Source: Nemertoderma westbladi
Lineage: Eukaryota > Animalia > Xenacoelomorpha
DNA: 64,000 nucleotides
Assembly: GCA_032718475.1 (NCBI GenBank)
Contig: JAUCBJ010005607.1
Location: 17,883 to 81,882 of the forward strand
Direction of reading: 5' to 3'
The notes below the pieces were generated by a model, which did no database searches, was not told the origin of the DNA, and worked only from the letters and a program-made list of their open reading frames with translations. Position numbers and translations under genes: made by a program. This document shows positions 1,440 to 44,090 of this stretch, in pieces. Numbering within the stretch: position 1 is the first letter of the stretch; each line of letters begins with the position of its first letter.

Positions 1440-1573
1440 GGAAATCCATTCGTATCCAATAGACCCAGAAATCAATGGAGCAACGAGTTGTACTATAACT
1501 GTGGATGCCGTGTACATTAACAGTGCTGCAAACGTTGGGGCTGCCAGAATTATATTCTGGGGCCAACATCAAG
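1440..1573 (+). CDS. Host gene exon: C-terminal part of a galactose-binding/discoidin-like beta-sandwich domain
   Basis: Acceptor tttag|G at 1439/1440 and donor CAAG|gtacgt at 1573/1574. Open frame EIHSYPIDPEINGATSCTITVDAVYINSAANVGAARIIFWGQHQ. The phase-1 end joins in frame to exon 13804 (G+AT=Asp). The domain call is inferred from the ITVxxVY...NVGxxxIxFWG pattern. Confidence 0.7.
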
Positions 1574-4500
1574 GTACGTATGGGTGCAGCGTAGATTAAT
1601 AGTGCTGAAAACGTTGGCGCTTCCAGAATTATTTTCTGGGGCCAACATGAAGGTACGTATGGGTGCAGCGTAGATTAATAGTGCTACAAACGTTGTGGCT
1701 TCCAGAATTATATTCTGGGGCCAACATCAAGGTACGTATGGGTGCAGCGTAGATTAATAGTGCTGAAAACGTTGGCGCTTCCAGAATTATTTTCTGTGGC
1801 CAACATGAAGGTACGTATGGGTGCAACGTAGATTAACAGTGCTACAAACGTTGTGGCTTCCAGAATTATATTCTGGGGCCAACATGAAGGTACGTATGGG
1901 TGCAGCGTAGATTAATAGTGCTACAAACGTTGTGGCTTCCAGAATTATATTCTGGGGCCAACATCAAGGTACGTATGGGTGCAGCGTAGATTAATAGTGC
2001 TACAAACGTTGTGGCTTCCAGAATTATATTCTGGGGCCAACATGAAGGTACGTATGGGTGTAGAGTAGATTAATAGTGCTGCAAACGTTGGGGCTTCCAG
2101 AATTATATTCTGGGACCAAAATGAAGGCACGTATGGGTGCAGCGCAAGTTAATAGTGCTGCAAACGTTGGTAATTCCAGAATTATATTCTGGGGCCAACA
2201 TGCAGGTACGTATGGGTGCAGCGTAGATTAATAGTGCTACAAACGTTGTGGCTTCCAGAATTATATTCTGGGGCCAACATGAAGGTACGTATGGGTGTAG
2301 AGTAGATTAATAGTGCTGCAAACGTTGGGGCTTCCAGAATTATATTCTGGGACCAAAATGAAGGCACGTATGGGTGCAGCGCAAGTTAATAGTGCTGCAA
2401 ACGTTGGGAATTCCAGAATTATATTCTGGGGCCAACATGAAGGTACGTATGGGTGTAGAGTAGATTAATAGTGCTGCAAACGTTGGGGCTTCCAGAATTA
2501 TATTCTGGGACCAAAATGAAGGCACGTATGGGTGCAGCGCAAGTTAATAGTGCTGCAAACGTTGGGAATTCCAGAATTATATTCTGGGGCCAACATGAAG
2601 GTACGTATGGGTGTAGAGTAGATTAATAGTGCTGCAAACGTTGGGGCTTCCAGAATTATATTCTGGGACCAAAATGAAGGCACGTATGGGTGCAGCGCAA
2701 GTTAATAGTGCTGCAAACGTTGGGAATTCCAGAATTATATTCTGGGGCCAACATGAAGGTACGTATGGGTGTAGAGTAGATTAATAGTGCTGCAAACGTT
2801 GGGGCTTCCAGAATTATATTCTGGGACCAAAATGAAGGCACGTATGGGTGCAGCGCAAGTTAATAGTGCTGCAAACATTGGGAATTCCAGAATTATATTC
2901 TGGGGCCAACATGAAGGTACGTATGGGTGTAGAGTAGATTAATAGTGCTGCAAACGTTGGGGCTTCCAGAATTATATTCTGGGACCAAAATGAAGGCACG
3001 TATGGGTGCAGAGCAAGTTAATAGTGCTGCAAACGTTGGGAATTCCAGAATTATATTCTGGGGCCAACATGAAGGTACGTATGGGTGTAGAGTAGATTAA
3101 TAGTGCTACAAACGTTGGGGCTTCCAGAATTATATTCTGGGGCCAACATGAAGGTACGTATGGGTGTAGAGTAGATTAATAGTGCTGCAAACGTTGGGGC
3201 TTCCAGAATTATATTCTGTGACCAAAATGAAGGCACGTATGGGTGCAGCGCAAGTTAATAGTGCTGCAAACGTTGGGAATTCCAGAATTATATTCTGGGG
3301 CCAACATGAAGGTACGTATGGGTGCAGCGTAGATTAATAGTGCTGCAAACGTTGTGGCTTCCAGAATTATATTCTGGGGCCAACATGAAGGTACGTATGG
3401 GTGTAGAGTAGATTAATAGTGCTGCAAACGTTGGGGCTTCCAGAATTATATTCTGGGACCAAAATGAAGGCACGTATGGGTGCAGCGCAAGTTAATAGTA
3501 CTGCAAACGTTGGGAATTCCAGAATAATATTCTGGGGCCAACATGAAGGTACGTATGGGTGCAGCGTAGGTTAATAGTGCTACAAACGTTGTGGCTTCCA
3601 GAATTATATTCTGGGGCCAACATGAAGGTACGTATGGGTGTAGAGTAGATTAATAGTGCTGCAAACGTTGGGGCTTCCAGAATTATATTCTGGGACCAAA
3701 ATGAAGGCACGTATGGGTGCAGCGCAAGTTAATAGTGCTGCAAACGTTGGGAATTCCAGAATTATATTCTGGGGCCAACATGAAGGTACGTATGGGTGCA
3801 GCGTAGATTAATAGTGCTACAAACGTTGTGGCTTCCAGAATTATATTCTGGGGCCAACATGAAGGTACGTATGGGTGTAGAGTAGATTAATAGTGCTGCA
3901 AACGTTGGGGCTTCCAGAATTATATTTTGGGACCAAAATGAAGGCACGTATGGGTGCAGCGCAAGTTAATAGCGCTGCAAACGTTGGGAATTCCAGAATT
4001 ATATTCTGGGGCCAACATAAAGGTACGTATGGGTGCAGCGTAGGTTAATAGTGCTACAAACGTTGGGGCTTCCAGAATTATATTTTGGGGCCAACATGAA
4101 GGTACGTATGGGTGCAGCGTAGATTAATAGTGCTACAAACGTTGTGGCTTCCAGAATTATATTCTGGGGCCAACATAAAGGTACGTATGGGTGCAGCGTA
4201 GATTAATAGTGCTACAAACGTTGTGGCTTCCAGAATTATATTTTGGGACCAAAATGAAGGCACGTATGGGTGCAGCGCAAGTTAATAGTGCTGCAAACGT
4301 TGGGAATTCCAGAATTATATTCTGGGGCCAACATGAAGGTACGTATGGGTGCAGCGTAGATTAATAGTGCTACAAACGTTGTGGCTTCCAGAATTATATT
4401 CTGGGGCCAACATAAAGGTACGTATGGGTGCAGCGTAGATTAACAGTGCTACAAACGTTGTGGCTTCCAAAATTATATTCTGGGGCCAACATAAAGGTAC

Positions 4501-5813
4501 GTATGGGTGCAGCGTAGATTAATAGTGCTGAAAACGTTGGCGCTTCCAGAATTATATTCTGGGGCCAACATAAAGGTACGTATGGGTGCAGCGTAGATTA
4601 ATAGTGCTACAAACGTTGTGGCTTCCCGAATTATATTCTGGGGCCAACATAAAGGTACGTATGGGTGCAGCGTAGATTAATAGTGCTACAAACGTTGTGG
4701 CTTCCAGAATTATATTCTGGGGCCAACATAAATGTACGTATGGGTGCAGCGTAGATTAACAGTGCTACAAACGTTGTGGCTTCCAGAATTATATTTTGGG
4801 GCCAACATGAAGGTACGTATGGGTGCAGCGTAGATTAATAGTGCTACAAACGTTGTGGCTTCCAGAATTATATTTTGGGGCCAACATGAAGGTACGTATG
4901 GGTGCAGCGTAGATTAATAGTGCTACAAACGTTGTGGCTTCCAGAATTATATTTTGGGGCCAACATGAAGGTACGTATGGGTGCAGCGTAGATTAATAGT
5001 GCTACAAACGTTGTGGCTTCCAGAATTATATTTTGGGGCCAACATGAAGGTACGTATGGGTGCAGCGTAGATTAATAGTGCTGCAAACGTTGGGGATTCC
5101 TGAAATATATTCTAGGCCAACATCAAGGTACGTATGGGTGCAGCGTAGGTTAATAGTGCTACAAACGTTGGGGCTTCCAGAATTATATTCTGGGGCCAAC
5201 ATGAAGGTACGTATGGGTGCAGCGTAGGTTAATAGTGCTACAAACGTTGTGGCTTCCAGAATTATATTCTGGGGCCAACATGAAGGTACGTATGGGTGCA
5301 GCGTAGATTAATAGTGCTACAAACGTTGTGGCTTCCAGAATTATATTCTAGGGCCAACATGAAGGTACGTATGGGTGCAGCGTAGATTAATAGTGCTGCA
5401 AACGTTGGGGATTCCTGAAATATATTCTAGGGCCAACATGAAGGTACGTATGGGTGTAGAGTAGATTAATAGTGCTGCAAACGTTGGGGCTTCCAGAATT
5501 ATATTCTGGGACCAAAATGAAGGCACGTATGGGTGCAGCGCAAGTTAATTGTGCTGCAAACGTTGGGAATTCCAGAATTATATTATGGGGCCAACATGAA
5601 GGTACGTATGGGTGCAGCGCAGGTTAATAGTGCTGCAAACGTTGGGGATTCTTGAATTATATTCTGGGGCCAACATGAATGTACGTATGGGTGGGTGCAG
5701 CGCAGGTTAATAGTGCTGCAAACGTTGGGGCTTCCAGAATTATATTATGGGGCCAACATGAAGGTGCGTATGGGTGCAGCGTAGATTAATAGCGCTGTAA
5801 AAGTTGGGGCTTC
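1516..5813. repeat. 79-bp tandem satellite, left block (about 54 units)
   Basis: Unit attaatagtgctgcaaacgttggggcttccagaattatattctggggccaacatgaaggtacgtatgggtgcagcgtag. The repeated short ORFs recur at multiples of 79 bp (mostly 158 and 237). Confidence 0.97.
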
Positions 5814-7329
5814 TGTGACGGGAGCCAACGGAGTTGGCAGTATCGGCTCCCGACCGGTGTGTGAATTGTACGCGTCGCCGCGTCCGTGAGCTGCTGAGCT
5901 GTCGATTGGATGTGTACTAGTAGGCTGAAGGCCATTGGAAATAATCTGAGTTCTGTTATCAGTATTAATAATCACAGTAATCGATAATAGCACAGTCTGA
6001 ATATAATAGCATGCAATACAACGGTTAGTGACTTTTAATGCAAGTCAGTCTGCAAGTCAAGCGTAACAATGGCGTAGCATTAAAATATTTCTAGTGCGTC
6101 ATTAAAGAGCGTAGCATTAAAATATTTATAGTGCGCTCTATCTAAGAAAACAAATAAGTTCGAATAATATAATAATGTAATAAATGAATAAATGAGTAAA
6201 GTTATTTAAAGTAAATAAATAAATAACGTAATAAAGTAAATAAATAAATAAAGTTACATTATCTCATTCTACCATTCCATACCTATAATCCAATAAATAA
6301 CTCAATATCATCCCGCTTCTAGTCACTTTCAGATTTATACTTTGACTGAAACACAATATAATGTCAACACAGTGACAGTGTTAATTGGTCAGCTCTTATT
6401 GGTTATCTAACCACACCACCAATATCAAGGCTCATGAAATCAGCTTTCCTACATTGTAACCCATTATCATCTCATATCATCTCTTCATCACGAATGAGTA
6501 TATAAGGCAGCACACAATATTCATTAGTTGGTAGTGCCAGTGATTTGTTGTTATGGGTTTATAGATTATTATATGTTAGTAGATTATTTAGTTAATATCG
6601 ATTTAAGTATAATAAACTATAATTTGATATATATAATATATATGGCCAAATATAATTAGGCCAATATATCATACTGTATAATAACGCTGCTTAATGTATC
6701 ATACCAATGAGCGTTATTAAAACAAATAATACTTTAATATTGCAATATTTTACTAGACATAACTCTATATTCCGATCCACAATAAAGGGCACGAAGCATT
6801 ACCCACAAATAAATTCCTTTAGGCACGGAATTTACTTAGATATGTTTTTACATATTCATATTTCACTAAAGTCAATATCTATTGACAAATGATAATGTTT
6901 TTGCCGGAACAGTGACGACGGTCAAAACTGTTCCGGTCTCACAACTGTAAGGAACCAACTAAACTAATAATCAATAATCACAATGGTTATATCATTGACA
7001 CATGTTAAACTACCCCTAAACTACAGGGTGGCCTTAATATCCAATAGATGCGCTCTAATCACCCCCAATGTGCTTTCCCGCCCACCATTGGCTTAACCTT
7101 AATTCTCACCTCGCCACTCCCTGTTGCCACTGTCCCTGTGTGCTAGCCTTACTAGCTTGTTTGTCCCTCTGAGGTGGTTTGACCTCTGAACGTGGCTTAC
7201 GGCGTATATCACCCCAGTTGGTTATGAGGTGACATTATTATTGCTAATAATGCACCTTGCCAACCATATAGGTAAAATGCCACTAATCCCATTTTCGGTG
7301 GGTAATGTACGGAATTGAATCCGCTTACA
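5814..7329 (-). repeat. 3' LTR of BEL element 1 (interrupted by a solo LTR)
   Basis: TGTGACGGGAGCC...GAATCCGCTTACA; matches 12321-12966 once 6033-6911 is removed. Confidence 0.92.
6033..6911. mobile_element. Probable solo LTR of an unrelated family, inserted in the 3' LTR
   Basis: Absent from the sister LTR. Flanked by a GTGAC duplication (6028-6032, 6912-6916). Ends TTTT...AACA, interpreted as a mutated TGTT...AACA. Internal TATAAG and AATAAA. Confidence 0.65.
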
Positions 7330-7951
7330 CTCCCCCGATGCTATCTTCCCGGTGAGAAGATAGCTTCAACCTTAAGTGCGCTTCAATTCCTCTGGAATCC
7401 AATCTAATATTGGATGTGGGGTGGAAATTTCTTCTCAGGGTCGGCTTTCCAGTCCGGCCCCCATGGGTCTGTTGTCACTACCCATCCTTGGTACATCAGC
7501 GAGCTAAGCTATACTAAGGCATCTGGCATCTCTGTTTTAGATGATCGCCCTCACTCCTCACACAATTTTCCTCACGGACTTAATCGTCCCTTCCTCTCTC
7601 ACTAGTCCCTTGGGACTCATCCCTCTCTATGCTCGCTCCCCACACTTGAATCTCGCACCTCTTTCACTTCCTCATACTCTACCACCTCCTCCCCATACTT
7701 CCCCTCTTCCCCCATACTCAACCCGTTTTCGTTGTCACTCTCCACACTCTTATCGGGTCCCACGCATGTGTGCACCATGTCAGTGAGATCCGTCTAATGT
7801 CTCGTCCTCCTGCTCTAGTCAATTGGTCGCCGATCCCTGTAGCTAGTTGGAAAAGGTTATATTCGATTATAGTACATATATTGATTATATTGGATATTTA
7901 TATTGATTAATTCTACGTATGTACATACTAATTGCACTTAATTAATTAAAC

Positions 7952-10645
7952 TTAGGAGTTTGTACTGCTGCATTCGTGTGGTGCCTTCCAGGCACGCTCA
8001 CACCCCTGTCCCTGAGTTCTAGATTGCTCCTCCCGCACCCTCCGGGAGCCATCTAAGTTCCTTGCCCCTATCATCATCTTGCCAGGGCTGCTTCCTTCCT
8101 TCCTGTTTATCCTTGGGGCTACTCATCCTTGCCGATACCGTCTTACCAAGCCCCATTGTTGGTTCTTTGGGCGCAGGTGTAATCAACTACCGGTATCGCT
8201 TTGCAGGTGATCCCACTGAGTGTCCCTCCTGTCTCCATCTATGGTAGTGTCCCACAAGATCATCTCCATCGTGCGCGGCACGTGTTCCCCCAGAAAGTCC
8301 TTGAATTCGATCCTATTATCTGGTGACCATCTGTCCAGGTATCTTTGTGTGTTTATGACCCCTCCGTACAATGACGCTATCGCTACCTCCTGATACGTGA
8401 ATGGTAGTCTCCTCTTGGTGATCTGCTGGTAGGCTTCTATGGTAATATTAAAGAAGCCCCACCGGAACTCCGGGCCTTCATCCTTTGTCGTGACATGACT
8501 CCGACGTCGGCCCACTCATCGAACATCCGGAACTTCTCTTCATCGTCCATCCAGTCGCACTGGCGCTCAAAGTGCCCTCTAAACTTGCACTTCGAACATC
8601 TGTTGTGCAACCTCGGACATGCACCCATCTGATGAGTAGACTCGCGGCAGTAGAGACACGCTGTCCCCTTCTGGAAACGGTATAGACAGTTCTTATGCTG
8701 ATGGGTTAATCTCCCACAGTAATCGCAACCGTGTACCATTGTGTCCCGCCCCAAGTCGTCTTTGGCTCCGCGTGGCCTCCTGGGTCTGTGGAGCCGCTGG
8801 GAGGCAAACATCTGGACGCTGTCCTCCCTACCCATGTCGATGTCCTCCTCCACCCTCGGCATTGTTTCTCCAAACACTACCCGTGGTGCCATCCCCGGTT
8901 GCTCGCCCAGCCTGATCGTACTCGCCGCAAAGTCAATTGCCGGCTCCCCGTGCTCCCAGGTCCGCTTACCAGGTTTGTCCCAGAAGGCTCTCGCCCTGCT
9001 GGCCAACACCACCCTCCCGTCCACCCAGTCCGCATCTGAGTGGCCGATCCTCGCTATCAGCGGCATCGCCCTGAACTTGTCCTCTTCTTCTTCCCCTGCT
9101 GGGGCCTCAATCCTCTCAATCGGTGGCATCGCCCCGAACTCATCCTCTTCTTCCTCCCCTGCCGGGAGCGGATCCAAACCCGGTAGCCAGGTTGATCCAC
9201 TGTGTCCCTTTACAACCTGGTATCCGCCCATAGCCTTCCACCCTTCTAACTCCCTCGGTCTCTTCCTTCCGATGTCCCCCTCAGAGCCAGCTGGCATGGG
9301 CATTCATTGCAACCCCGATGTAGACTGTGTCGGAGTCTCTTCCATCCAACCCAGTTCGTCCCCAAGTCGAAACTCGTCTGAGGTCTCCAATCCCCACCTC
9401 AACTCGTCCAAATCCTGGACTTCGAACTCATACTCCTATCCCCTTATATCCGCTTCTCTGCCTGCTGCCTCCCTTCTCTCTCTCCTGGCAACCTGCTCTA
9501 CTCTCTTCTCCCCGACCCTATCTGCCTCCAGTTTCCTCCATCGTTTGTATGGTGTTTCTACCTCTCTGTCCACTAGGTGTTGGGTATCGTAATATACCGA
9601 CTCGCCCTTCAGCCCCGGATGGTCTACAAGACCACTCTAATGCCACCTTAAAGGCTTTCCTGTGATTCAGAGGTGCTCCTGATAGTAGAAACGCCATCGG
9701 CTCCCTCCCGATAACCTCCGTAATGTATAGGTTTAATAAACCTATCATTATCCAATCCTCCTGTAGGATATATCTCTTCTGATATATATTTATCACTCCC
9801 TTCCGGAACTGATACACTTCCTGCTTTCCTGGTCTCGCTCCCCACTTGAGCGAGTTCGCAAGTTACGCTCCCTATTCTTCCCGGAACTTGTTCCATTCCA
9901 TCGGCTTGTGGCAGACGAGTCCCATCAGTTGGCTCATCGCCACGGCTCCGCAATGTCCCGTGTTTTCCACCAATCCCAATCTCATCATAACAGTCTCGTC
10001 ATAACCATGTAGACTACCTGCATGTCCAGGAGATTGGAGGTGTCCGGTCCAATAATCCTATCCGCATCGTCGCGTATTGCCGATCCCACCTTGATCGTAG
10101 TTTTATGTCTCACTAGCTCCTGCACTGCCCTCGGCAACCGGTTCAGCTTCGGCCTGCTTTTCTTTCCATAGGTCCCTAGGTCGAATAGAAAAATATCTCC
10201 GTTCAGCACTGCCAAGTGCAGCAATATAGTTCTAGCCGATCCTCCCGATCCTTCTCGAGCCCTCATCATCCTCCACAGTCCCTTCGTCGCCTAGGACCAT
10301 GTATCCGCCTCTCTCCACGGAATCTACAAATCTCCTCCACTCCTTCCTCGGTGGTTCCCTCAGATACTTAGGTATCCCAAACTTTGCCTAGTCTCCCTTT
10401 ACAACATAGCGAAGGCGAAGATGCTCATGGATCGTGTTGTCCAACGATGGCGTCCCGTAGGTCCCCACCAGTCATCTCTCGTGCATCTCCCTAAACTGAT
10501 CCTGTAGTGTGTGCGCTTTGTGACCCTTTGGGAGTAGTTTGTAGTATCCCTCCATCTTGTTCTCCGGAAGCCTCTGCGTGAAGTCCACTAACAACTACTT
10601 CCCAGTCTTCTCCGATTTCCTCTTCTTCACTAGTTTATCCGCCAT
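7952..10645 (-). pseudogene. Extra ORF of BEL element: DEDDy (WRN/EXD-like) 3'-5' exonuclease plus triple CCHC zinc-knuckle protein, with stops and frameshifts
   Basis: ATG at 10645. Fragments YMVLGDEG, ILLHLAVLNGDIFLFDL...LPRAVQELVRHKTTIKVGSAIRDDADRI...NLLDMQ (9985-10269) and QKRYILQED (9518-9817). Knuckles CDYCGRLTHQHKNC, CLYCRESTHQMGAC, CSKCKFRGHFERQC (8437-9303). Confidence 0.75.
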
Positions 10646-11114
10646 CACGAGTCGACACACTCTCATAAAGGCTCAGTTTAAGTAAGAGGGTTGTCAAACA
10701 GAATGTTACTTGTTCCGATCAGTGACGGCCTACCTCCTACACTATGTTTTTCGGTATATTTTAAACAAATATACCCCCTACATGCCAATTTTCCCTAAAT
10801 TTGCAATTTTGTCAGTTGCTTTTATTAATGATTCCAGAATTTTTTCCCCCCAGTTGCCATAATTTGTTCATTTTTCAATTTTTACTACTATTTATATTCC
10901 CCCCCCCCCCCTACGTGTGCTGTCATTATCTGCTATCTGGTTACTTACTTAAGTAACCCCTCTAGTTGTATACAGAGAAGAGTAGCTACAGTTTTCTCAT
11001 TACCGTACTAGCTTCCTACCTGACAGCTTCCTGGCTCTGTAACAATACCCTAAGTCTGTACTACGGGCTGTGCGCTACAGTAGTCTAGTTCGTGCAGCCT
11101 ACACGGTCTACACA

Positions 11115-11402
11115 GCCCTCACGTGGCGCCCTCAGTGCCCACAAGTTTACAGTACTGTGTACCCCTCTACTACGGTATGCATAAATACCCCCCTCAATTC
11201 CTCACATGGCGCCCTCAGTGCCCTCAAGTTTACAGTACTGTGTACCCCTCGATTACGGTATACATACATACCCCCCCACAATTCCTCACGTGGCACCCTC
11301 AGTGCCCACAAGTTTAAGGTACTGTGTACCCTTCTACTACGGTATGCATTCATAACCCCCCCCTCTCAATTCCTCGCGTGGCGCTCTCAGTGCCCACAAG
11401 TT
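11115..11402. repeat. About 84-bp tandem repeat (about 3.5 copies) between pol and the extra ORF
   Basis: Recurring cctcacgtggcgccctcagtgcccacaagtttacagtactgtgtaccc. Confidence 0.8.
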
Positions 11403-11669
11403 GTGCGTATGTAAATTTGGTATGTTGGTACATTATTGTACCCGTCTGATGTACGTTATTATAACTACCTATACTTGTATATTATGTATGTTGGTAGGTC
11501 TGTACCCATCAGACGTACATAATATGTACTATCTACATTCAGCATACCTTGGTACTAACTACTTATTTTATTATTTTATTTATTTTGTTTATTTTTATTT
11601 TTATGTGTGGGATGGGCGTCTCGCCCTCATTCCCACTCCCCTCAGTACAATATATTGGACGACTCAACT

Positions 11670-12320
11670 CTAGGGAGACCCTTCCAATAGGCAACACTTT
11701 CCTACTGCCCAACTGTAGGTCTTCCTATCTTTGGCCCCTATCTTTCCTCGAATCCTCACTTTCACGGATCTAATTCTTCCATCTTCGTCGGGGTAGGTTT
11801 CTACTACCCTAGCTAATCTCCAGTGGTTATTGATAATTGTATCATCCGTGATGATTATCAAGTCACCCTTCTTTAGCTTCCTTTGGCTATTCCTCCATTT
11901 ACTCCTCTTGTGTAGTGTTGGAAGGTACTCTTGTATCCACCTTGTCCAATACTTACTGCCTTAGTGACCTTCCAGCTTTGACGCGAATGTATATCGTCTG
12001 GATCCATGTTTCACATGTCAATTGTTGCTGGTCTGTCCATCAGTAGGTGTGCTGGTGTTAGGACATCCAGTGATTCTGGATGGTCGTTCTCGGGATATAG
12101 TGGTCAGCTGTTAATAATGTTCGTATCACCTTTATCTTGACTGGCCCAAACATGTCCACGCCTCAGTGTGTGAATGGTGGGTCGTGGTGCCTCACCCTGT
12201 TGGCCGGTAATAGCGCCATCTCCTGTACGGCCATATCCTTCTTCGTCCGTCGGCAGGTCTGGCACTGCCCCACTACCGCCTTCACCATCTTTCTGAGTTG
12301 GATTCCTAGATCTTTCTGAC
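11670..12320 (-). pseudogene. BEL integrase remnants (zinc-binding region and C-terminal DUF5641-like region; catalytic core deleted)
   Basis: VKAVVGQCQTCRR...MALLPANRVRHHDPPFTH and WRLARVVETYPDEDGRIRSV...CCLLEGSP align with the end of the 1795-aa ORF. Deletion junction at about 12120. Confidence 0.88.
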
Positions 12321-12966
12321 TGTGACGGGAGCCAACGGAGTTGGCAGTATCGGCTCCCGACCGGTGTGTGAATTGTACGTACGCATTGCCGCATCCGTGA
12401 GCTGCTGAGCTGTCGATTGGATGTGTACTAGTAGGCCAAAGGCCGTTGGAAACAATCTGAGTTCTGTTATCAGTATTAATAATCACAGTAATCGATAATA
12501 GCACAGTCTGAATATAATAGCATGCAATACAACGGTTAGTGACGATGGTCAAAACCTTTCCGGTCTCACAACTGTAAGGAACCAACTAAACTAATAATCA
12601 ATAATCACAACGGTTATATCATTGACACATGTTAAATTACCCCTACACTACAGGGTGGCCTTAATTTCCAATAGATGCGCTCTAATCACCCCCAATGTGC
12701 TTCCCAGCCCACCATTGGCTTAACCTGATTAATTCTCACCTCGCCACTCCCTGTTGCCACTGTCCCTGTGTGCTAGCCTTACTAGCTTATTTGTCCCTCT
12801 GAGGTGGTTTGACCTCTCAACTCTCTCTGTGGCTTACGGCATGTATCACCCCAGTTGGTTATGAGGTGACATTATTATTGCTTATAATGCACCTCGCTAA
12901 CCCTATTGGTAAAATGTCACTTATCCCATTTTCGGTGGGTAATGCACGGAATTGAATCCGCTTACA
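12321..12966 (-). repeat. 5' LTR of BEL element 1
   Basis: TGTGACGGGAGCC...CCGCTTACA, 646 bp. Confidence 0.92.
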
Positions 12967-13637
12967 GCTTCCAGAATTATATTATGGGGCCAACATGAAG
13001 GTACGTATGGGTGCAGCGCAGGTTAATAGTGCTGCAAACGTTGGGGTTTCCAGAATTATATTATGGGACCAACATGAAGGTACGTATGGGTGCAGCGCAG
13101 GTTAATAGTGCTGCAAACGTTGGGGATTCCTGAATTTTATTCTGGGGCCAATATGAAGGTACGTATGGGGCGCAGAGTAGATTAATAGTGCTGCAAACGT
13201 TGGAGCTTCCAGAATTATATTTCTGGGGCCAACATTAAGATGTACGTATGGGTGCAATGTAGATTAATAGTGCTGCAAATGTTGGGGCTTCCAGAATTAT
13301 ATTATGGGGCCAACAAGAAGGTACATATGGGTGTAGAGTAGATTAATAGTGCTGCAAACGTTGGGGCTTCCAGAATTATATTCTGGGTCCAACATTAAGG
13401 TACGTATGGGAGCAACGTAGATTAAAAGTGCTGCAAACGTTGTTGGGGCTTCCTGAATTATATTATGGGACCAACATGAAGGTACGTATGGGTGCAGCGT
13501 AGATTAATAGTGCTGCAAACTTTGGGGCTTCCAGAATTATATTATGGGGCCAACATGAAGGTACGTATGGGAGCAACGTAGATTAAAAGTGCTGCAAACG
13601 TTGGGGCTTCCTGAATTATATTTTGGGGCCAACATTG
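12967..13637. repeat. 79-bp satellite, right block (about 8 more diverged units)
   Basis: Same unit resumes in register after the TSD; small indels present. Confidence 0.95.
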
Positions 13638-13803
13638 AGCTCAAACATAACTAATTCCAGTATAGATCATAGCAACTAAGTATAACTGAACATTGCATAA
13701 TGTTATACATAATGTAGTAATTAGAATCATGTTAATCTTGAAGAACCATCATTAGAACCACAATTTTGACTCAACATTGGATATTATATTTTAATTATTT
13801 CAG

Positions 13804-14514
13804 ATTCATGTAGTGGAAACTATGTGTCCCATGGATCATGGTGGCCATTGAACAACAACTATGCCGGAAATGACATATTGGAAATTGCTAAACCACTTTC
13901 CTCCCACTCGCAAAATGATAACCACCCAGCAAACACTAACAACATAAAGGGCACTGTAAGATATGTCCCTGGACCAAGTGGCATCGCTAATCAAGCCATG
14001 GAATTTGCCAATGGATACATTTCATTCCCACATGCGGCTAACCAGTTAGTGGACAACACCTTCACCATAGTTGCATTTTTTAAGCCAGGCAACCAAGCTG
14101 GCCCTATATTAGGTTTTGGTGGTCACAACGAAAGAGGTACACATTTGTGGAACTATCTTCAACCGACTTCCCTATGGTACAGCTGTGGTGGCGCACAATC
14201 AATGACAGCAGATAATGCAATCACTACTGACACGTGGTACATGATTTCAGTGGGGGTCAATGCTGAAACTGGAAAAACACTTCTCTATAGTCGAATTGTA
14301 GGGACAAATATAGTAACAACGAAACTGTTTGATTCTCATTTTACTGGCAGATGTACTCCAGATATTACCAGCAATTTCAACATAGGATTTGATGAGAAGG
14401 ATTCAAGAAAACAGCTCGGGCATGTCGCCCATGTCCGATATTACGGCTGTTATTATACTCTGACACAGCTTAATGACATTTATGAGGAGGGTCTGGCTTT
14501 TGAACAGGAAAATG
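13804..14514 (+). CDS. Host gene exon encoding a concanavalin A-like/LamG-like domain
   Basis: ttttcag|AT acceptor and AATG|gtaagt donor; 711 bp, phase 1-1. Motifs WWPL...GP.G...A.EF, FTIVAFFKP, WYMISV, FNIG, G.VAHVRYY...LT..QL..IY. Confidence 0.85.
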
Positions 14515-14953
14515 GTAAGTTTATGATCCAGTTTCTAAATGAATTCGAATAAATAAATTGTAAAAGAAATTACTGCTAGAGGTGCATGTGCTAGAGGAGG
14601 GAGGGGGTCGTCAAAATTTGGGGTGTAGAATTTCTAATTGCAGATTAGTCCGAAAGTCACTCACATCAAACCAAGTTGTTGATAGGACTAGGGATCTTTT
14701 TTAGTAACAAAAATATTTCAAATTTGATTTAAAACCAACAATAAATACCAATGAATTAAAAATAATTTTCAAGTTTTACTAAATACATGGGTGTAAAAAT
14801 TGATTCCCATACTTTTTTAATAATTAACTACAGAAATAGAACATACAAACACAAAGACTTTCAACTAATAATATCTAAAATTAAAATTCAAGCATTCTGA
14901 CCCGCGATGGGTGCGGAGGCTGGGGGGGGGGGGGGGGGGGGGCAGAGAGGAGA

Positions 14954-19812: not shown

Positions 19813-19971
19813 AACCTGCTCCTTTCCCTAAATAGATATGTTAACATTCTAACATTGAACATTTTAACATTCTAAAGTTTCAATTACTTCATAATTAAAA
19901 ACACCCATAAGTGAATAACACAAATATTGTTTGTGGCTTATAAAAGTTATCATTATTGTTAATTGTTTCAG

Positions 19972-20643
19972 CTGATGGTTGCCAATACGAATCATACTGG
20001 CCTTTGAGTAGGCAACATGGAGCCAGAGACACGGGTGGAAACCTCCATGGCACAATTAGAGGAAACGTTGAGTATGGTACAGGCCCAGCTGGAGTCGTCA
20101 ATCAGGCAACATTTTTCAATGGGTCTTACATTTCAATTGAACATCGACATGAATTATCCACAGCAGCATCCACCATAGTGGCTTTTGTAAAGCATACAGC
20201 TATAGATGACACAACAAGGGGCGAAACAAGGCTAGGTGATATTGTGTTTGGGTATCAACATCGCGATATTGTAAAGACAGGTGCTGCAGTTTTTTTTAAT
20301 CTTGAACCTTATTTACATATATACTACGTGCATCAAAGTAAAAGGGCGCGCATGAGTGTAACTAATGTGAACAAGATTCGTAACAAGTGGTACATGGTAG
20401 CTGTATCAATAGATAACATATTAAAAGATGGCCTGTTATTCATACAAGAAGTGGATACCAATGTCACATGGCGCCTACCTTTTAAGAGTTATGGCCGTTC
20501 GTTTCGAGATGCGAACTTCCCTTTCATCATTGGCCAAATGCAAAACGGATATGTTGCACATGTTCAATACTACAGCTGTGCTTTAAGTGTAATGGACTTG
20601 AAAGAGGTTTATAGTAAAACATTGGATGAAGAAAGGAAAATAG
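19972..20643 (+). CDS. Host gene exon encoding a second ConA/LamG-like domain
   Basis: tgtttcag|CT acceptor and ATAG|gtgaga donor; 672 bp, phase 1-1. Paralogous to exon 13804 (YWPL, GPAGVVNQA.FFNGSYIS, TIVAFVK, WYMVAV, VAHVQYY.C). Confidence 0.85.
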
Positions 20644-21139
20644 GTGAGAGTATATTCGTAGTAAATTTAATATCATATTTTCATCGATTCTCATATACAA
20701 TGCAATATTATGTTCCAGTGAAGCCACACAGCCCACTACACTAACAGGAATCAATAATGATTCCAAATCTCATAATTAAATTAAGAAATATCTGAGATCT
20801 GAGGATCAAAGGTTTTCTCCTTGTTCACTTCATTCACATTTTATAATTTCAAACATTCTGGGACACTCAGTTGCATGGTTCCATTATGTATGAGGTGGGA
20901 CCAGAATGGATTTGAAAATATTACTAATATAACTAAGTTATGTTAATAATAAATAGCTAATAGGTTTCCCTACAAAATCCACCTATTTACTATATGTAAA
21001 TGCATTCTCAACGTCCATGGGAATGCCTACCTTGTATAGGTTTCCAGAAAATTAGATCTGGTATGAGCTCGCCTATTCTTCTACATCAGTGCCACCTAAC
21101 AACTAAATCGCTGTCTGCGCTCATGTAGATATTATACAG

Positions 21140-23735
21140 TAGATAGATTTATTTATACATTATGTAAAAACAATAACAAATACACCAAACAATGTACCGG
21201 TATAAAGGTATTGTCCAACATAACATATAGCGGATTACCCCTAAAGCTTTGCAGCTTATTTCCAAGGGGGTCGTTTATGTTACCTGGTTACAAATTCAAT
21301 ATTACACTACGCTAACTTAAAACCAATATAAAACGTAATTACACTATGTACATGTACAACTTTACCGAGAGCGTGACAATGTCCGACTCAACGATAAAGA
21401 TGTAATGTACAGAACAATTTATTATAAAACGTATTTACAGTATAAATAGTAAAATTAATAATTAATAAACTAATAACTTACTGTAGGACTATTGTACCTA
21501 ATTTTACATTGCACACGGAGGTGAGATTCAACTGCAGATTTAAAAGAATGTTGATTATTTATGTTTTTATTTCATTAGGCAGAGCGTTCCAATTTTTAAT
21601 ACTGTTAAAAAAGAAAGTATCAGATTCAAAGGATTTACAATTCGGGAGGTAGAAGTTTGAAGCACTAGCTCTGGTACTGTAAGAGTGTGTATTGCGTACT
21701 CTGTTGAATTTTTGTTTTAGGTAATTGGGACATTTACCATTATACACTTTATGCACATGGTTAAGGCGTAGCTGCTTAACTCTACTATCTAAGTTAAGTA
21801 GTCCAGATTCAGAAAAGTCATCTGGAGTTAGGTGGTGCCGAGGTGTGTAGTCTTTAATAAATCGTACTACTTTATTCTGAGCTACTTGTAATTTACATTT
21901 AAGCTGTTTGGTTAAGCTTTCATACCAAGAAGAGCACGCATAGTCCATGTTACACTGTATTAAAGAAGAGCAAAGTAACCTGCGGGAGTCGGTATTTAAA
22001 CTATTTTTATTTCTGTATAGAAACCTAAGCCTACTGTTAACTTTCGAGAAAATATTTTTCACTGTACTTTCTCCTGATAAGCAGTTATCCAATGTGGCGC
22101 CTAAATATTTAACTTCCTTTTTATTTTCAATCTTATGTCCATTACTAGTGACTTCAAACTTAGTTACCTTCTTTAACTTTCTTTTGGAACCAAACAAAAT
22201 ACTTTCAGTCTTACCGTAGTGAATGGATAGCTTATTATCAACCAACCACTCATTACAGGATTCTAGAACTGCACTTAACTTTTGGGAAATATGGATAGGA
22301 TCTTTATGAGAGAAAATAAGAGCACTGTCGTCGGCATATAAAATGAGTTTAAAATCGGGATCTATACTACTTATCATATCATTTACATAGCATACAAAAA
22401 GCAGAGGACCTAATATACTACCGTGCGGTACACCACAGGTAATCTCTTGTACAGTAGACTGCGATTTGCCAATGACTACAGTTTGACCTCTGTCTGACAG
22501 GTACGACTTGAACCAGTCTATAGAACCTACACCCATCAGGCCTAACTTACCAAGCAGAATTTCGTGATCTACAGTATCGAAAGCCTTTTGTAGGTCCAAC
22601 ATTACTATACCAGTATATAAACCCTTTGCGTTATTACATCTAATTGTATCAGTTAAGTTAATAAGGCAGGTGTCTGTAGAATATGATTTACGAAAACCAG
22701 ACTGAAGTTTATAGATCAGATTTAGCCTACTAAGATGTGCTTCCAGCTGTAGAAAAACAGAACGTTCTAGAATTTTAGATACAATACTTAAGATACGAAC
22801 AGGTCTGTAATTACAGGGTTCTACTTTACTATTCTTTTTATACAGAGGAACAACCTTAGCTAATTTCAGTTCGTCTGGTACTACATTATCTACGATAGAG
22901 TAATTAATAATAAAAGTAATAGGCACTTTAAGTACTTCAGCACCATCCTTAAGAAAACGGGCTGGTATTAGATCTAGACCGGTACTTTTTGAGGCTGATA
23001 GGCTAAGTAGATTTTTAAAAACGAAATCCTCAGAAACGGGTTTTAAAAATAACTTTTCTGAATTTTGTAACTTTTCTAAATAAAAAATATTTAGAGTTTC
23101 GGACCCTATACTATATTTATTACTTGATAACGGTAACTTCTTAACTAAATTAGAGGCAACATTAGTAAAATAATTATTAAATAAATTACTAACTAGAGTA
23201 TGATCATGAATCAGCTCACCGTTATCTTGCAGAACAATATTCGATTTAGATTTAAGGTTTTTATAACCTAAAGATTTTAGGGTAGACCATAGACTTTTAG
23301 GATTATCTTTATTCTCACTTATTTTGTTGTATAAATATTCAGATTTAGCTTTTTTTATTTCCCGTTGGACAATGATTTCTATATTTGCAGTAATTATTAT
23401 TATAATCAGCTAAAACACAGTATTTCCTAAATTTATACAAATAGTTATCTCTTTCTCTGATATTACTAAGAATAACCGAGGTCATCCAGGGCTCAGTGCG
23501 TTGTTTAAGACTAATTTCTTTAATTGGTGCTATAGTATTAAGTGCCTTTAGAAATATATCTTTAAAAACAGTGTAGGCAAGGTTAATGTCAGCGGCCTTA
23601 AAACAGGGTTCCCAGTCAGAATTAACTAACAAACCTAAAAAGCGTTCCTTTCTGTAATTTTTCATAGACCTAACTGTTACTGTTTTATGATCCCGGAAAA
23701 AAGATTTTTGTGTCTTTCTTGTGCAAAAAACTATA
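21140..23735 (-). mobile_element. 5'-truncated CR1/L2-group LINE
   Basis: RT ORF 21559-22926 plus upstream ORF2 fragment (23345-23730, PWMT motif). 3' UTR stem-loop 'gacccccttggaaataagc...ttaggggtaatcc', and AATAAA near 21150. Confidence 0.88.
21559..22926 (-). CDS. LINE reverse transcriptase (ORF2 fragment)
   Basis: [37 protein letters not shown] and KYLG motifs. Confidence 0.9.
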
Positions 23736-25335: not shown

Positions 25336-25842
25336 GGCAGTTCCCTGAGTGCCCGTGGTAAAAGACTTAAGACCATTTTGAAATAATTAATTCATGTTTG
25401 TATCATCAGATAATAAATTGACTAAGCCTAAAGTAGGAGCTGTATTGAATGTTAACCAATTTAATATATAAATTACTACAATATTATATAATTCAACAAA
25501 ATCCTATTAAAAATATTGCAAGTAACCAGGAAATTTAATATGTAGTGTGTATAATATCTCTATAGTATGTATAGTAATATGTATATCAATATGTAATGCT
25601 GAACACAGAATACAGGTCGACGCATGTCGATTTTACCCTGGAGAGGAAAGTTTTGATTGCAACAATAATATTCATCCCCATCTGCTACAATTTGAAGAAG
25701 ACTATCACATAATAATACCTATAATTAAAACAATTAATTATTTATTATAATTCTATAGTTAATAAAAACAGTATATCATTCGGGGGATGGAATTTATAGG
25801 TAATCTAATTAATTGTTTAAAGATTAGCAAACAATAGTAGAC

Positions 25843-27255
25843 ATGTACCAAACAACAAGAGTCCCACAAGAAATGAAAACAAATAAGTTGGTGCCAGTTC
25901 CCAAGAAGGGCAACCTAACACTCTATGGTTCTTTTCGGGGAATCTCATTGATCTCGATTGCTGCAAAGCTATACAATAGGATTCTATTAAATCGCATCAG
26001 GGATCCCATTGAGAGACTGCTCCGTGGAAATCAGAATGGGTTCCGTAAAGGTCGTGGGACCATGGAGCCCATTTTGGCACTTAGAAGGATAATTGAAGAA
26101 TTATCAAAAAAGAAAGACAGGCATCTGGCTGTTATCTTTGTTGACTTCTTCAAGGCCTTTGATTCAGTCTCTCGTTCACGTATGTTCAGCATACTTTCAT
26201 TATATGGGATTCCTGATGAAATTATTGCAGCAATCAGATCAGTATACGATGGTTCGACAACATTTGTGTCTACTGTTGACGGTGACACAGAACCATTTGA
26301 AGTGTTATGGGGCGTCCTCCAAGGAGACACACTTGCACCATTCTTGTTCATTATTGTGGTTGACTATGTTCTACGCATGTCCTTAGATCATCATAATGAT
26401 GATGGGGTGATGATAACTCCACCTACTGGCTCCAGAAGTCGAGGAAATCCTGCCAAGTACCTAACTGATCTAGACTTTGCTGATGACTTAGGAGTACTCT
26501 CAGAATCATTAGAGGGAGCCCAACGGCTCCTCAGCTCATTAGAACATGCTGCTTCTAGTGTTGGTCTTTTTATTAACTCCAGAAAGACCAAAATTCTGAC
26601 CGTTAACTTTGAAAGTCCTCAGCAAGTCTCTGATCGGATGAGCATAAGCTCAAAGGATGGTATGCTTGAGCATGTGGACGACTTCTGTTACCTGGGATCA
26701 TGGATCCGGAAGTCAGGTGAGGACCTTCGAATACGTAAGGGAAAGGCATGGGCAGCCTTGAATAGGCTTTCCAGGATTTGGAAGTCACCGAGAATTAATC
26801 GGAAACTTAAGGTCCGATTATTTAGAGCAGCAGTAGTTCCAGTACTCCTCTATGGGAGTCCATGCTGGGCTCTAACTGCTGAGGACACCAAATCTCTGGA
26901 TGGCACATTCACAAGAATGCTACGCCGGGTTCATTGTGTCAAGTACAATGCACACATCTCCAACCAGACACTATATAACATTGGAGGTGTCTCATTGGTT
27001 CCCCCAAGCTTGACACTAGAACAAAACCGCCTCCGCTTTGCAGGACATTGCTTTCGCCGTGAGGACCAGCCAGTGCATAATCTTGTACTTTGGCAGCCTC
27101 ATGGAGTGAAAAAGCATGGTGGACAGCCCATGACTTTCTTGAGACGCATCTTAAAGGACACTGGCCTTAAAGATGCGGATGATCTAGCAAATGTCATGGG
27201 TGATAGGGAGTTGTGGCGGTGCAATTTTGTTGACAAGCCGGCACAGCATTCTTAA
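25843..27255 (+). CDS. RTE-clade LINE reverse transcriptase, 5'-truncated copy
   Basis: RGISL, QNGFR, DFFKAFDSV, GVLQGDTLAPFLF, DFADD, FCYLGS, RLRFAGHC motifs; (TAG)n tail at about 27285-27300. Confidence 0.9.
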   Translation: MYQTTRVPQEMKTNKLVPVPKKGNLTLYGSFRGISLISIAAKLYNRILLNRIRDPIERLLRGNQNGFRKGRGTMEPILALRRIIEELSKKKDRHLAVIFVDFFKAFDSVSRSRMFSILSLYGIPDEIIAAIRSVYDGSTTFVSTVDGDTEPFEVLWGVLQGDTLAPFLFIIVVDYVLRMSLDHHNDDGVMITPPTGSRSRGNPAKYLTDLDFADDLGVLSESLEGAQRLLSSLEHAASSVGLFINSRKTKILTVNFESPQQVSDRMSISSKDGMLEHVDDFCYLGSWIRKSGEDLRIRKGKAWAALNRLSRIWKSPRINRKLKVRLFRAAVVPVLLYGSPCWALTAEDTKSLDGTFTRMLRRVHCVKYNAHISNQTLYNIGGVSLVPPSLTLEQNRLRFAGHCFRREDQPVHNLVLWQPHGVKKHGGQPMTFLRRILKDTGLKDADDLANVMGDRELWRCNFVDKPAQHS

Positions 27256-27878
27256 AAATGCAGCTGCAATGCAGCATGCCGATCCTAGTAGTAGTAGTAG
27301 CAAACAATACGATGTAATTGCATTGATAAAACTCATAAATAAAACTTGGATATAAAATGAAAAATCGGGATGCAAAAGATCACTTTCTTAGCTACGAAAG
27401 GAAAATTGGATACAACTTATCCGGATACAAGCGTTCCGGTTACCTTACAAATTGAAAAATAAGAATGTGCGAAGTTAAGAACAGTCGGGGGGGAAGTGTC
27501 TGGGGGGGAAGTGTCCGGGGGGAGTGTCCTACTTGAGCGGGGGGGGGGGAACTGTCCAGGGGGGAAGTGTCCGGGGGGGGGGGAAGTGTCCAAACACCCT
27601 GGCCAATGAATGCACATTAATCAGATGGTAACCTGCCCCACCATTGGCTAATCTCTTTCTCCCCGCTGGCAATCCCTAATCTCTGTGCTAGCTTTCTTTC
27701 TCCCCCGAGATGGCTTGTAACCTGTCATCTCTCCCTAACTAACCAATTGGCAATATAAGTTGCCCTGTGCGTTGGTAGGTGACATTATATTGGTAATGTC
27801 ACCTAGCCAACTATAATTGGTAAATCGCCAGTTTCCCCATTTTCCGCTGGGTGGTGCTGCGAATTTTATCCGCTAACA

Positions 27879-30690
27879 CTCCCCCCTCCATGCTATCTTC
27901 CCAGTGAGAAGATAGCATCAACCTCAAGTGCGCTCCGATTCCGCTGGAATCCAATCTAACATTGGATGTGGGGTGGAATTATTTTCTTGGGGCCTGCTTT
28001 CCAGACTGGCCCCTCTGGGTCTGTTCTCACTACCCATCCTTGGTACATCTGCGAGCTAAGCTGTACCAAGGCATCTGGCGTCTCAATTTTCTCAAAATCA
28101 CTCAATTTTCTCCCCATACACCATCGTCCAACCTGCTCACCTCCTCCTCACCTTAGTCCCATAGGATTCATCCTCCACTCTGCTCGCCCCCCCCCCCCCC
28201 CCCCCACATGGATCACGCACCTCTTACCTTTCCCCCAAATTCTAGCACCTCCTCCCCATGCTCCTCTCATACTTAACCCTGTTTCATTCCCACTCTCTGC
28301 ACTCCCGTCAGGTCTCACACAACCCTTCATATGCGCACTGTATGTATGGTAAGTGAGCCCTTTGTCTCGTCCACGTGTTTCAGTGAATTAGTCTGTAATA
28401 ATTTGTCCGTTAACCCTTAATCATGACTCTATCTAGACTATACATGGTCCCATTGACCCGGCTTTAGTATTGGTCTCATTGACCCAGCATAAGTATTGGT
28501 CCCATTGACCCGGCGTAAGTATTGGTCTCATTGACCCGGTGTAATTATGTAATTATGTAATTATTTATTTTATTATTTTTATTTATTTTTGTGGGAAGGG
28601 TGTATCGCCCTCATTCCCACCCCCTCAGTCCAACTTATTGGACAACTCATCAACCTAAGGGCGATTCTTCCAGCAGGTAACTCTCCCACTGCCCCCCTGT
28701 AGGTCCTCTTATTCTTCACTCCACTCTCCTTGTCAATCCTAACTCCCTCAGATCTGACCTTCCCTTCTCTTCCACCCTAAGATTGGATCTTTCCGTCCCC
28801 TCACAGAACTCCTTATCGTCCCCTGGTGGAAAAATGCCACCCTTCATCTCATCCTCACTGGTATATGCCACCTCAGCTGGCCTCCCCCTCAATATGTGCA
28901 CTGGCGTTAAAGCCCCCGATGACCCTTGGTCATCATTCGGTACGCAAAATGGTTTAACTTTTAATGCCCCCTCGCACTCTGCCAACCCCGTGTACAACAC
29001 GTCTCCTCTAATTTCCCCATTCCCTTTGTCACCCTTCGTCATCGGCTCCTCTCCCTTTGGATTAAACTTCTTACATCCTCTCCCTTTCCACATTGTCTTC
29101 TTATTTGATACCAGGGGTATCTGTATACTCCTTATTTTGATCGGTGTCTCTTCAGTATATCTCTCCGGATATTTCGCCGTCCAATCTTCCCCATCCTTGT
29201 ACTGGACCTGCGTCTCTTCCGGACATCTCTCCGGATATCTTCCACTCTTCCATCCGCTCTTCCACATCCTTATACTGATACTTCCCAGGAACATCTGTGT
29301 TCCATCCCATCGCCTCTAGGTCCTCTGGGTTGAACCCATTATCTTCTGCCCACTGCCTTGCTGTTGCTTCTTGTCCCGACTCCTGATATCCTTCCCCGGG
29401 CCGCTTCTCATATGGCATCTCTATATCGCCCGTCTTCGACTCCGGCTCTACTTCCCCAATGGTACCAGATAGCATGTATCCAGATGTTTTGGGTGTGTTG
29501 AATGGGATTTGGTTTTTATTGGACCGCTGAGTGTCCATTCGAATGGCATCAGGATAGCCCCGGGTCTCGCTCCTTGTTATCGCCGAAGATGGCTCATAGC
29601 CTCTCATGAGCCGTCTGAGAGTTCATGCCGACAATGAGAGACACTTTCAGGATGTCCAATTTCGGTGTTGAAAAATTGATGTCATCCAAGTACCGATACT
29701 GTTCGGTTTCGATTATTGTCGGCCACCTGGCGTTAATATTAATAGATTTCTTTATCTGGATGGGCTCGATCGTAGCCCCGTAATTACATTCCGGTGTAAT
29801 CGCCGCTATCTGACATCGTCCTGTTCTCATCTTCATGACCTCGTCCTTGCTGGAAATGGTGGTCACGGCCATCTTGCTCAGCCTAGTCTTCATCCCCAAT
29901 CTCTCGGCTACCCATTTTTCCGTTATCGTAAATGCTGCCCCACTGTTAATCAACATCAGTGTAGATACCGATTGCCTGTACTCTCCCTTTATCCTTACTG
30001 GCACCACTCCCAGTAACACTGTTCCACGCTTCTTAAATCTTCCAGTTGTACTTGGCGCCATTGTTTGGCCTCCAGTCTCGTTGGTCTCAGCGTATCTCGG
30101 TGGATGTTCTCGACACCTATCCTTCCTATGTCCTCCCACCGCACATCTGTGACATAATCCAAATCTCCCTGTATAAGCTAATCGATCTTCTTTCAGCAAT
30201 GCCTGCCACTGGTTGCAATCAATGGTCTTATACATCCTATTTCTATCTAGCTGACACCTGTAGTTTGGATTATAACGCTCTATGTATAGCGTCTCGCATA
30301 TTTCGTCCAGGTCCAACTCAGATGGTTTATTGTTTTGGTTGCATATACCCGTATCAGGGGTGTTCTGATGTTCTGTGGACTAGTACTCCCTTCAATGGTT
30401 GCATATGGCAACGATTGCCTCACTCTCGGAAGTGCATCTGCAGCACTGTGTTCCGCTTGAGGTCGGCTGTATTCCACTTTCGGTACCTTACCAAGACTCT
30501 CCTCACTGTACACTGGATCCGTTATCAACTCAGCTTCGTAGATAAGGAAGTTCGACATCTCTTCCAACCCCGGCTCCGCACCCTTCTTCTCTCGGGTGGA
30601 GAAAGTGATCTTTCTCCATTTATTCCTCAACCATATCGGTAGTGCCTGCACTATGCTCGTGATGTTACTTGAAGCATTAAGTTCGTATGG
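27879..30690 (-). mobile_element. BEL element 2: internally deleted and degenerate (gag-protease fragment and eroded integrase tail)
   Basis: PYELNASSNIT...ITDPVYSE and GTVLLGVVPV...LINSGAAFT align with the 1795-aa ORF. LAECEG...LTPVHIL resembles the integrase tail. 3' UTR and PPT are shared with the other two copies. Confidence 0.85.
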
Positions 30691-37238: not shown

Positions 37239-37332
37239 TTTAGCGTGCGCGTATCATTAAAAGTTTAAGATAATTTTTCTAATTCCACAGGCGGTGCGGC
37301 TTCGCTTACTTTGTACTATGCGAGATCTTTAT

Positions 37333-38566: not shown

Positions 38567-38603
38567 TGTTAAGTTACATGAAAATATCACGACATTTATT
38601 ATT

Positions 38604-44073: not shown

Positions 44074-44090
44074 TGTTGATAGGTAGTCAC

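Follow-up and report, generated by a model that had tools for sequence, protein, structure and literature searches.

The window, the whole 64,000-nucleotide stretch of Nemertoderma westbladi DNA that was analysed, contains three BEL/Pao-type elements, referred to here as elements 1, 2 and 3. Element 1 is on the minus strand. It consists of approximately 650 nt of pol, a 1-kb spacer, a decayed third open reading frame (ORF3, 10645-7952) and a 3' region that extends to approximately 6895 (Table 1). It is a 5'-truncated fragment in which pol upstream of 12319 is lost and 650 nt are left (12319-11670). The truncation on the 5' side is made by a duplicate of the LTR end and flank of the same element (12320-12966). 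Because element 1 is truncated, its Pfam set includes only DUF5641 among the domains that define BEL/Pao elements, whereas element 3 has the full set (PF05380, DUF1759 and DUF5641). The end of its pol is 71% identical to that of element 3 over 593 nt. The window holds only the 3' LTR end of element 1, and the start of this LTR is not fixable within the window. The entire ORF3 stretch is covered by thousands of contigs from three DNA runs (two studies, same organism) and is therefore a high-copy repeat.

Table 1. Features of elements 1 and 3, given in positions of the window.
Feature	Position	Strand	Evidence or remark
BEL/Pao pol 3' tail (integrase end and DUF5641) with stops and frameshifts	12319-11670	-	DUF5641 E 1.1e-23, Integrase_H2C2 E 0.056 (Pfam)
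Hairpin directly 3' of the pol stop, followed by an AT-rich run; kept in elements 1, 2 and 3	11607-11636	-	Alignment
84-bp tandem repeat, 3.4 copies, in the pol-ORF3 spacer	11117-11402		TRF
Stretch 5' of ORF3 in common with element 3 (55835-55655)	10706-10898	-	Local alignment score 84; shuffle mean 45.7, max 80 of 300
Decayed ORF3, ~900 codons: predicted exonuclease fold, acidic linker, three knuckles, conserved C-terminal module	7952-10645	-	End uncertain below 8240
Predicted DEDDy-type (EXD2/Nibbler/WRN-like) exonuclease domain	9710-10390	-	Profile matches E 1.3e-8 and 7e-10
Three CX2CX4HX4C zinc knuckles	8557-8727	-	zf-CCHC_4 E 9e-4, three stretches; family motif H-x4-C-P-x-L-H-x2-C-x2-C-x2-R-G-H
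Conserved post-knuckle module (F..ADxG..T.R, W/GFF), split by the break near 8471	8400-8556	-	Alignments of relatives
3' non-coding region and 3' LTR, with blocks in common with elements 2 and 3; CA end near 6895	6895-7830	-	LTR end placed by eye against element 3
Duplicate of the LTR end and flank of element 1	12320-12966	-	93% to 6911-7329, 95% to 5813-6032
Element 3: 1795-codon open BEL/Pao gag-pol frame, related family	56719-62106	-	Peptidase_A17 E 6e-38, DUF5641, DUF1759

The hairpin behind the pol stop has folding z-scores of -2.2, -2.7 and -1.8 in elements 1, 2 and 3, respectively. A strong hairpin (z -4.7) is present near 7335-7370 in the LTR region of element 1. Conserved hairpins at 11607-11636, 7335-7370 and 7975-7995 have equivalents in elements 2 and 3. 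At 7975-7995, the end of the ORF (elements 1 and 3), one pair is changed on both sides. The duplicated LTR end and flank is without 6033-6910 and is joined at a short microhomology. A 79-bp satellite lies on both sides of element 1 (1512-5813 and 12967-13635). Elsewhere in the window, a decayed Maverick/Polinton-like element with DNA polymerase B and integrase occupies 36798-48091 (minus strand), and one of its ORFs (39224-39832) has a weak Maelstrom match (E 0.006). Laminin-G-like ORFs and non-LTR-type reverse transcriptase ORFs, two of each, are found at 13770-14552 (+), 19944-20744 (+), 21559-23409 (-) and 25828-27255 (+).

The sequence-only reading described a decayed ORF of about 900 codons on the pol strand, after the pol stop at 11670, with an exonuclease signature and three zinc knuckles. 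The motifs it quoted are found at 10645-7952. On the minus strand these are VLGDEG (10297-10280), LLHLA/IFLFD/LP/KVGSAIRDD (10227-10066) and QKRYILQED (9781-9755). The three knuckles match CX2CX4HX4C exactly and start at 8727, 8658 and 8598; more than one knuckle occurs in 0 of 2000 composition-matched simulations. The ORF3 frame is broken near 10250, 9985, 9635, 8471 and 8240, and it contains in-frame stops as well. At all five breaks the contigs of the three DNA runs are longer or shorter than the window, and the breaks are therefore a property of the window copy. An ATG at 10860 may represent an earlier start of ORF3 or an exon.

The proposed Pfam check of ORF3 gives a divided result. The knuckles match zf-CCHC_4 (E 9e-4), but single frames of the window ORF3 have no exonuclease match in Pfam or PDB, and the exonuclease fold is reached through relatives. 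A phmmer search finds 19 proteins, and the best-matching stretch of each is the knuckles. Seven long proteins among the 19 have an N-terminal domain, and P0008 matches PF01612 with an E of 6e-5, just short of the cut-off. A first profile, built from the N-terminal domains of these seven proteins (found by their knuckle stretch, and with the window excluded), matches the window at 10227-10012 with an E of 1.3e-8. This bears out the WRN/EXD-like exonuclease that had been proposed for the window ORF. A weak second match follows at 9955-9710, in the correct order. With a larger profile, the same two segments are matched with E values of 7e-10 and 0.012. The plant Gag-like P0006 and the proteins P0023 and P0038, in which knuckles occur with a homeodomain, are left out of the exonuclease profile. 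The knuckle module is fused to the homeodomain in P0023/P0038 (E 1.8e-5 for P0023) and is duplicated in P0005.

Searched against PDB, a 27-sequence exonuclease profile finds EXD2 (E 5.5e-15), whose ExoI and ExoII line up with those of the profile, and then, weakly, WRN and Egalitarian. The top PDB match of a full-length ORF3 profile is trypanosome RNase D (E 2e-8), mostly from the knuckles. The AF2 model of the exonuclease domain of one relative (L045) has a pLDDT of 92, and Foldseek matches it to EXD2 and Nibbler. In VIA-align, this model matches Nibbler with Z 15.9 (rmsd 3.1, 205 aligned, 12% identity), WRN with Z 14.2 and Egalitarian with Z 13.1; WRN and Klenow range over Z 13.5-14.2. The AF2 model of a full-length ORF3 relative is poor (pLDDT 46) except in the exonuclease core. 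A predicted DnaQ-like fold is found in the ORF3 relatives, and the window copy is tied to it by profile. Only L069, among 12 relatives' ORF3s scanned with Pfam, passes the PF01612 cut-off. Because the domain is nearly invisible to Pfam (1/12 passed), repeat libraries would miss ORF3.

Metagenomes were searched with a degenerate knuckle-motif pattern alone, which has one match in the window and none in 100 shuffles. The pattern occurs at 120 or more metagenome loci, and most of those listed come from a few related assembly series. Flanks are present for 80 of the listed loci; the 40 of 120 without flanks are left unscored. Of the 80 flanked loci among the matches listed, 61 carry an exonuclease domain 5' of the knuckles and in the same orientation. 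Among the same matches, the other 19 flanked loci comprise 16 with less than 1.3 kb of upstream sequence and three with a long ORF3 without exonuclease. By tblastn, 42 of the 80 flanked loci among those listed have BEL pol upstream in the same orientation, and a profile raises this number to 48. When at least 4.5 kb of upstream sequence is present, 34 of 37 listed loci contain BEL pol, and the three long loci without it are L004, L010 and L078. A Pfam scan of the upstream Pol gives BEL/Pao in all seven loci scanned (PF05380 and DUF5641 in L009, L024, L026, L031, L040 and L069; DUF5641 in L071). The viral contigs searched contain no match to ORF3, and P0016 is not found among the metagenome contigs searched.

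The position of ORF3 within complete elements can be read from two relatives. L071 has two 775-bp LTRs and a 5-bp target duplication, with ORF3 inside the element and before the 3' LTR. L018 has two LTRs of 797 bp, and ORF3 is outside the LTRs themselves and also before the 3' LTR. These two loci agree with the earlier placement of an extra gene in the env position of a BEL/Pao element. In L055, L058 and L074, a purine tract and TG occur after ORF3. The predicted exonuclease-triple-knuckle third gene is confirmed as a part of many BEL/Pao families, where it follows pol.

A primer site beginning TGGCGCCCAAC, presumably of the tRNA-Lys type, is common to six relatives. The same site or a close variant follows the LTR in L028, L050, L052, L055, L058, L074, L071 and L018. 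The primer site given for the Belpaoviridae is tRNA-Arg or tRNA-Gly (PMC8742986). Element 1 has no primer site in the window, its 5' end being lost. Four loci of a BEL branch (L041, L049, L066 and L051) have an ORF3 with the knuckle module, an unrelated N-terminal part and a long helical C-terminus. In the long ORF3s of L041, L049 and L066, the knuckle module is kept and the exonuclease fold is absent.

Pol and exonuclease distances are strongly correlated (rho 0.87, n = 22, 0 of 2000 permutations) among relatives in which Pol differs by 16-74%. This co-divergence fits vertical inheritance. The quick tree contains 26 Pol rows and has no outgroup, and in it the window Pol is on a long branch (best identity 31%). 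A further 16 of the 42 Pol rows are too short or broken and are outside the tree. With no outgroup to root the tree and so long a branch for the window Pol, a single origin of the ORF3 carriers is not proven. The exonuclease domain has dN/dS values of 0.03-0.27 in the 26 estimable of 31 pairs, dead groups included. Copies of the window family vary at 36 sites in the exonuclease domain, and 27 of these sites fall on the third position of a codon (p 4e-7); the count excludes position 10249, which coincides with a break. Both results are in line with the dN/dS below 1 that had been expected.

Together with selection and the presence of the gene in dozens of families, the correlation with Pol also supports the view that ORF3 is ancestral and not a one-off capture. 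A separate nested element was considered and is rejected: ORF3 is between the two LTRs in L071 and L018, occupies the same slot across dozens of families, co-diverges with Pol and is under selection. ORF3 was likewise considered as env and rejected. In the relatives' ORF3s of at least 500 aa, hydrophobicity over 19 residues (Kyte-Doolittle) does not exceed 1.94, and no env Pfam domain is found in those scanned. ORF3 probably does a basic job in the element cycle, since it is stable in families with Pol differing by up to 74%.

The catalytic set (D-E-D/E-Y/H-D/E) was scored in 42 groups of less than 60% identity among the listed loci, and it is intact in 21, altered in 20 and truncated in one. 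This count drops 7 of 61 exonuclease loci, in which a stop falls inside the domain. L045 and L069 are of the intact type, L028 and L006 of the altered type. Losses of catalytic residues are spread over several separate groups. Because half of the groups retain the full active site, catalysis matters somewhere. In the window, ExoI reads Gly-Asp-Glu (10291-10283), with Gly in place of the first Asp of intact relatives. The ExoII Asp lies at 10071, where two runs list no variant, and ExoIII has the form YxxxE (Tyr 9772, Glu 9760), as in P0012 and P0017. The ExoI Gly codon has no variant at 25% or more, at high depth and in two studies, and Gly is present in at least three quarters of the depth. 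The expectation of intact DEDDy residues and an active nuclease is not supported for the window family on this point.

In the available text of the TbRND study, D80A or E82A in ExoI abolishes cleavage (PMC7797062). Since ExoI reads G-D-E in the copies sampled, ORF3 of the window family is likely a pseudo-nuclease, as predicted from its residues, that is still conserved. The DEDD fold of Maelstrom-type proteins can cut with a rebuilt site. Given such rebuilt sites and the acidic residues that adjoin ExoI in the window copy, 'dead' is a prediction.

Elements 2 and 3 lack an alignable ORF3. Element 2 (27600-30700, minus strand) is a BEL derivative that contains pol fragments, no ORF3 and a 26-bp repeat in the spacer. 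The body of ORF3 is not alignable in element 3. This element was thought to keep the ORF3 tail as a shared 'AWKAP' coding segment, and that claim does not stand. Aligned with each other, the tails of elements 1 and 3 score 54, less than the best shuffled alignment (58.5), and the 20 nt common to the region fold as a hairpin in both elements. The segment also lies below the further length difference near 8240. AWKAP is rejected as coding evidence on these grounds. Element 3 instead matches element 1 upstream of ORF3 (score 84, shuffle maximum 80), and it is likely an internal deletion derivative.

Pol stops are scorable in 41 relatives among the listed loci, and 17 of these have TGA-C. An in-frame opening of at least 200 codons continues past the pol stop in 13 of 17 TGA-C loci versus 1 of 24 others (Fisher p 1.6e-6, for rows that are related and TGA-C loci that perhaps form two independent groups). 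In 9 of the 41 relatives, all with TGA-C, no further stop interrupts the pol frame between the pol stop and the knuckles of ORF3 (L006, L024, L026, L029, L062, L065, L067, L074 and L076). Contexts at the pol stop include TGA-CGG and TGA-CAA-TTA, which are presumably viral read-through signals. The TGA-C junction is a candidate for a programmed read-through fusion of ORF3 to Gag-Pol, and such read-through would tie the ORF3 protein to Gag-Pol. Splicing to an acceptor just past the pol stop is a fair rival to read-through. TGAC resembles a branch point, the codon pattern in the linker is weak (identity 0.60, 0.55 and 0.49 by position) and independent origins are few. Folding z-scores of the RNA downstream of the TGA-C stops give a mixed picture and range from -3.7 to +1.8. 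The window family has a 1-kb pol-ORF3 spacer and no TGA-C in-frame junction, and its ORF3 would need a spliced or subgenomic RNA.

The reading of ORF3 that is given an even chance of being correct is that the window family encodes a catalytically dead protein that would bind the element's own RNA, and that intact members would also trim 3' ends. The ancestral ORF3 protein would have worked like trypanosome RNase D. Its knuckles would grip single-stranded RNA and feed the 3' end to a two-metal DEDDy site. RNA binding would be the function kept by selection, because about half of the groups have dropped catalysis. The likely target would be the element's own RNA or particle, and the role 3'-end holding or shielding, packaging or transport. 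The analogy is to Egalitarian, whose exonuclease fold needs no catalytic residues to bind RNA stem-loops (PMC13186709, in the available text). Intact ORF3 members may additionally trim 3' tails. A broader scenario is put forward tentatively and is somewhat doubtful as a whole. It supposes a BEL/Pao lineage that is large, old and so far undescribed and is defined by an exonuclease-triple-knuckle gene, a repeated shift from nuclease to RNA binder, UGA-C read-through in at least two branches and a product that acts as a particle-borne 3'-end guard or an anti-piRNA factor.

ORF3 could also act against silencing of the element, either by binding or trimming the 3' ends of host piRNA or siRNA or by competing with Nibbler/EXD1-type factors. 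Nibbler is the top structural match in VIA-align, and the Atlas matches include an EXD1-like cluster (0.78, a lead only). Dead versions could serve as decoys, and a silencing role is raised in the available text of the rotifer paper (PMC5408684). However, the Nibbler match has 12% identity and exceeds that of WRN by only 1.7 Z, and the exonuclease domains of DNA polymerases score little lower. The low dN/dS and the co-divergence with Pol give no sign of an arms race, and a protein made by read-through would be present in small amounts and linked to Gag-Pol. An anti-silencing role comes second in rank and is considered rather unlikely. An active 3'-5' nuclease for reverse transcription, which would proofread or trim cDNA ends, primers or 3' tails in the particle, is improbable. 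The WRN and Klenow exonuclease domains do match (Z 13.5-14.2), and 21 of 42 groups have the full site, including the in-frame TGA-C loci L024 and L062, but selection on the 20 altered groups and on the window family is left unexplained.

Another arrangement places the gene of the window family not in the env slot but within a very long LTR beginning immediately downstream of pol. A purine run and then TG lie directly 3' of the pol stop in all three elements, tandem repeats come next, and no equally conserved polypurine tract is found after ORF3. This arrangement is at odds with L071 and L018, which carry ORF3 outside LTRs of 775 and 797 bp, and with L055, L058 and L074, in which a purine tract and TG lie past ORF3. 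It has little probability, and it concerns the position of the gene and not its identity. That ORF3 is neutral cargo, a nested element or an env substitute is largely refuted and very improbable. It would fit the interrupted ORF3 of the window and the open gag-pol frame of element 3, which has no ORF3, but the gene is under selection, co-diverges with Pol, has no hydrophobic segment above 1.94 and is found in the same slot in dozens of families.

BEL/Pao third genes are described as envelope-like, whereas the predicted non-envelope gene here is stable in dozens of families. An RNase D-like domain was reportedly noted by Malik et al. in 2000 in Cer13 of C. elegans, beside env. Among the Belpaoviridae with an env-like third gene, Roo, Tas, Cer13 and Atlas likewise have a third gene after Gag-Pol, but according to the available text it is a fusion glycoprotein, unlike ORF3 here (PMC8742986, PMC9094657, PMC13524379). 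The ICTV profile of the family names only env-like third genes (PMC8742986). The word 'exonuclease' is absent from the available main text of PMC3118150, PMC13524379, PMC9094657 and PMC12451622. The available text of PMC11662393 and PMC5603734 adds nothing on the subject. Full-text searches show no BEL/Pao exonuclease-knuckle gene, although such elements may be present in Repbase, in GyDB or in the supplementary data of PMC3118150 and PMC5408684.

Among host proteins, TbRND (PDB 7C42/7C45) has its domains in the same order as ORF3, with a DEDD domain, a linker and then CCHC knuckles. Unlike ORF3, it belongs to the host, has four knuckles and works in mitochondria, where it trims the U-tails of guide RNAs; its knuckles bind RNA (PMC7797062, in the available text). 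TbRND is the top Atlas cluster for P0012 (0.86). The common layout of TbRND and ORF3 may be convergent, because the ORF3 exonuclease is nearer to EXD2 by sequence. Egalitarian, EXD1 and Maelstrom are host germline proteins that are not element-borne and contain no knuckle triplet; a LOTUS partner occurs among them. EXD1/Maelstrom-type proteins have Lsm or HMG partner domains. These proteins resemble ORF3 in their DEDD fold and in catalytic residues that, in the available text, are dispensable or lost (PMC13186709, PMC5408684).

The closest published counterparts by description are the DEDDy-exonuclease ORF3s of bdelloid rotifer LTR elements (Juno and Vesta), which are shared with Athena/Terminon (PMC5408684) and are also reported in PMC5718144. 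The sequence-only reading does not mention this precedent. As in the elements described here, Juno and Vesta have a DEDDy 3'-5' exonuclease gene in the env slot and no membrane segment. The rotifer carriers are dUTPase-bearing rotifer LTR lineages and Penelope-like elements, while ORF3 here belongs to BEL/Pao. The rotifer genes are described as recent, family-specific captures with intact residues, whereas ORF3 here co-diverges with Pol and has several catalytic losses. In the available text, no triple CCHC module is reported for the rotifer ORF3s and a Cys-His-Cys motif is noted; the comparison with the BEL/Pao ORF3 is by description only (PMC5408684). An Atlas feature match of a window piece is to a PF01612 cluster (17% of members) in which Rotifera are commonest (score 0.90, a lead only). 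DEDDy ORF3s in rotifer elements are already known, and what is probably new here is the predicted exonuclease-knuckle third gene in BEL/Pao. Intact and dead, spaced and in-frame, and gene-less sister copies make the question raised by the rotifer elements testable, namely whether such proteins act by cleaving RNA, by protecting it or by opposing small-RNA silencing.
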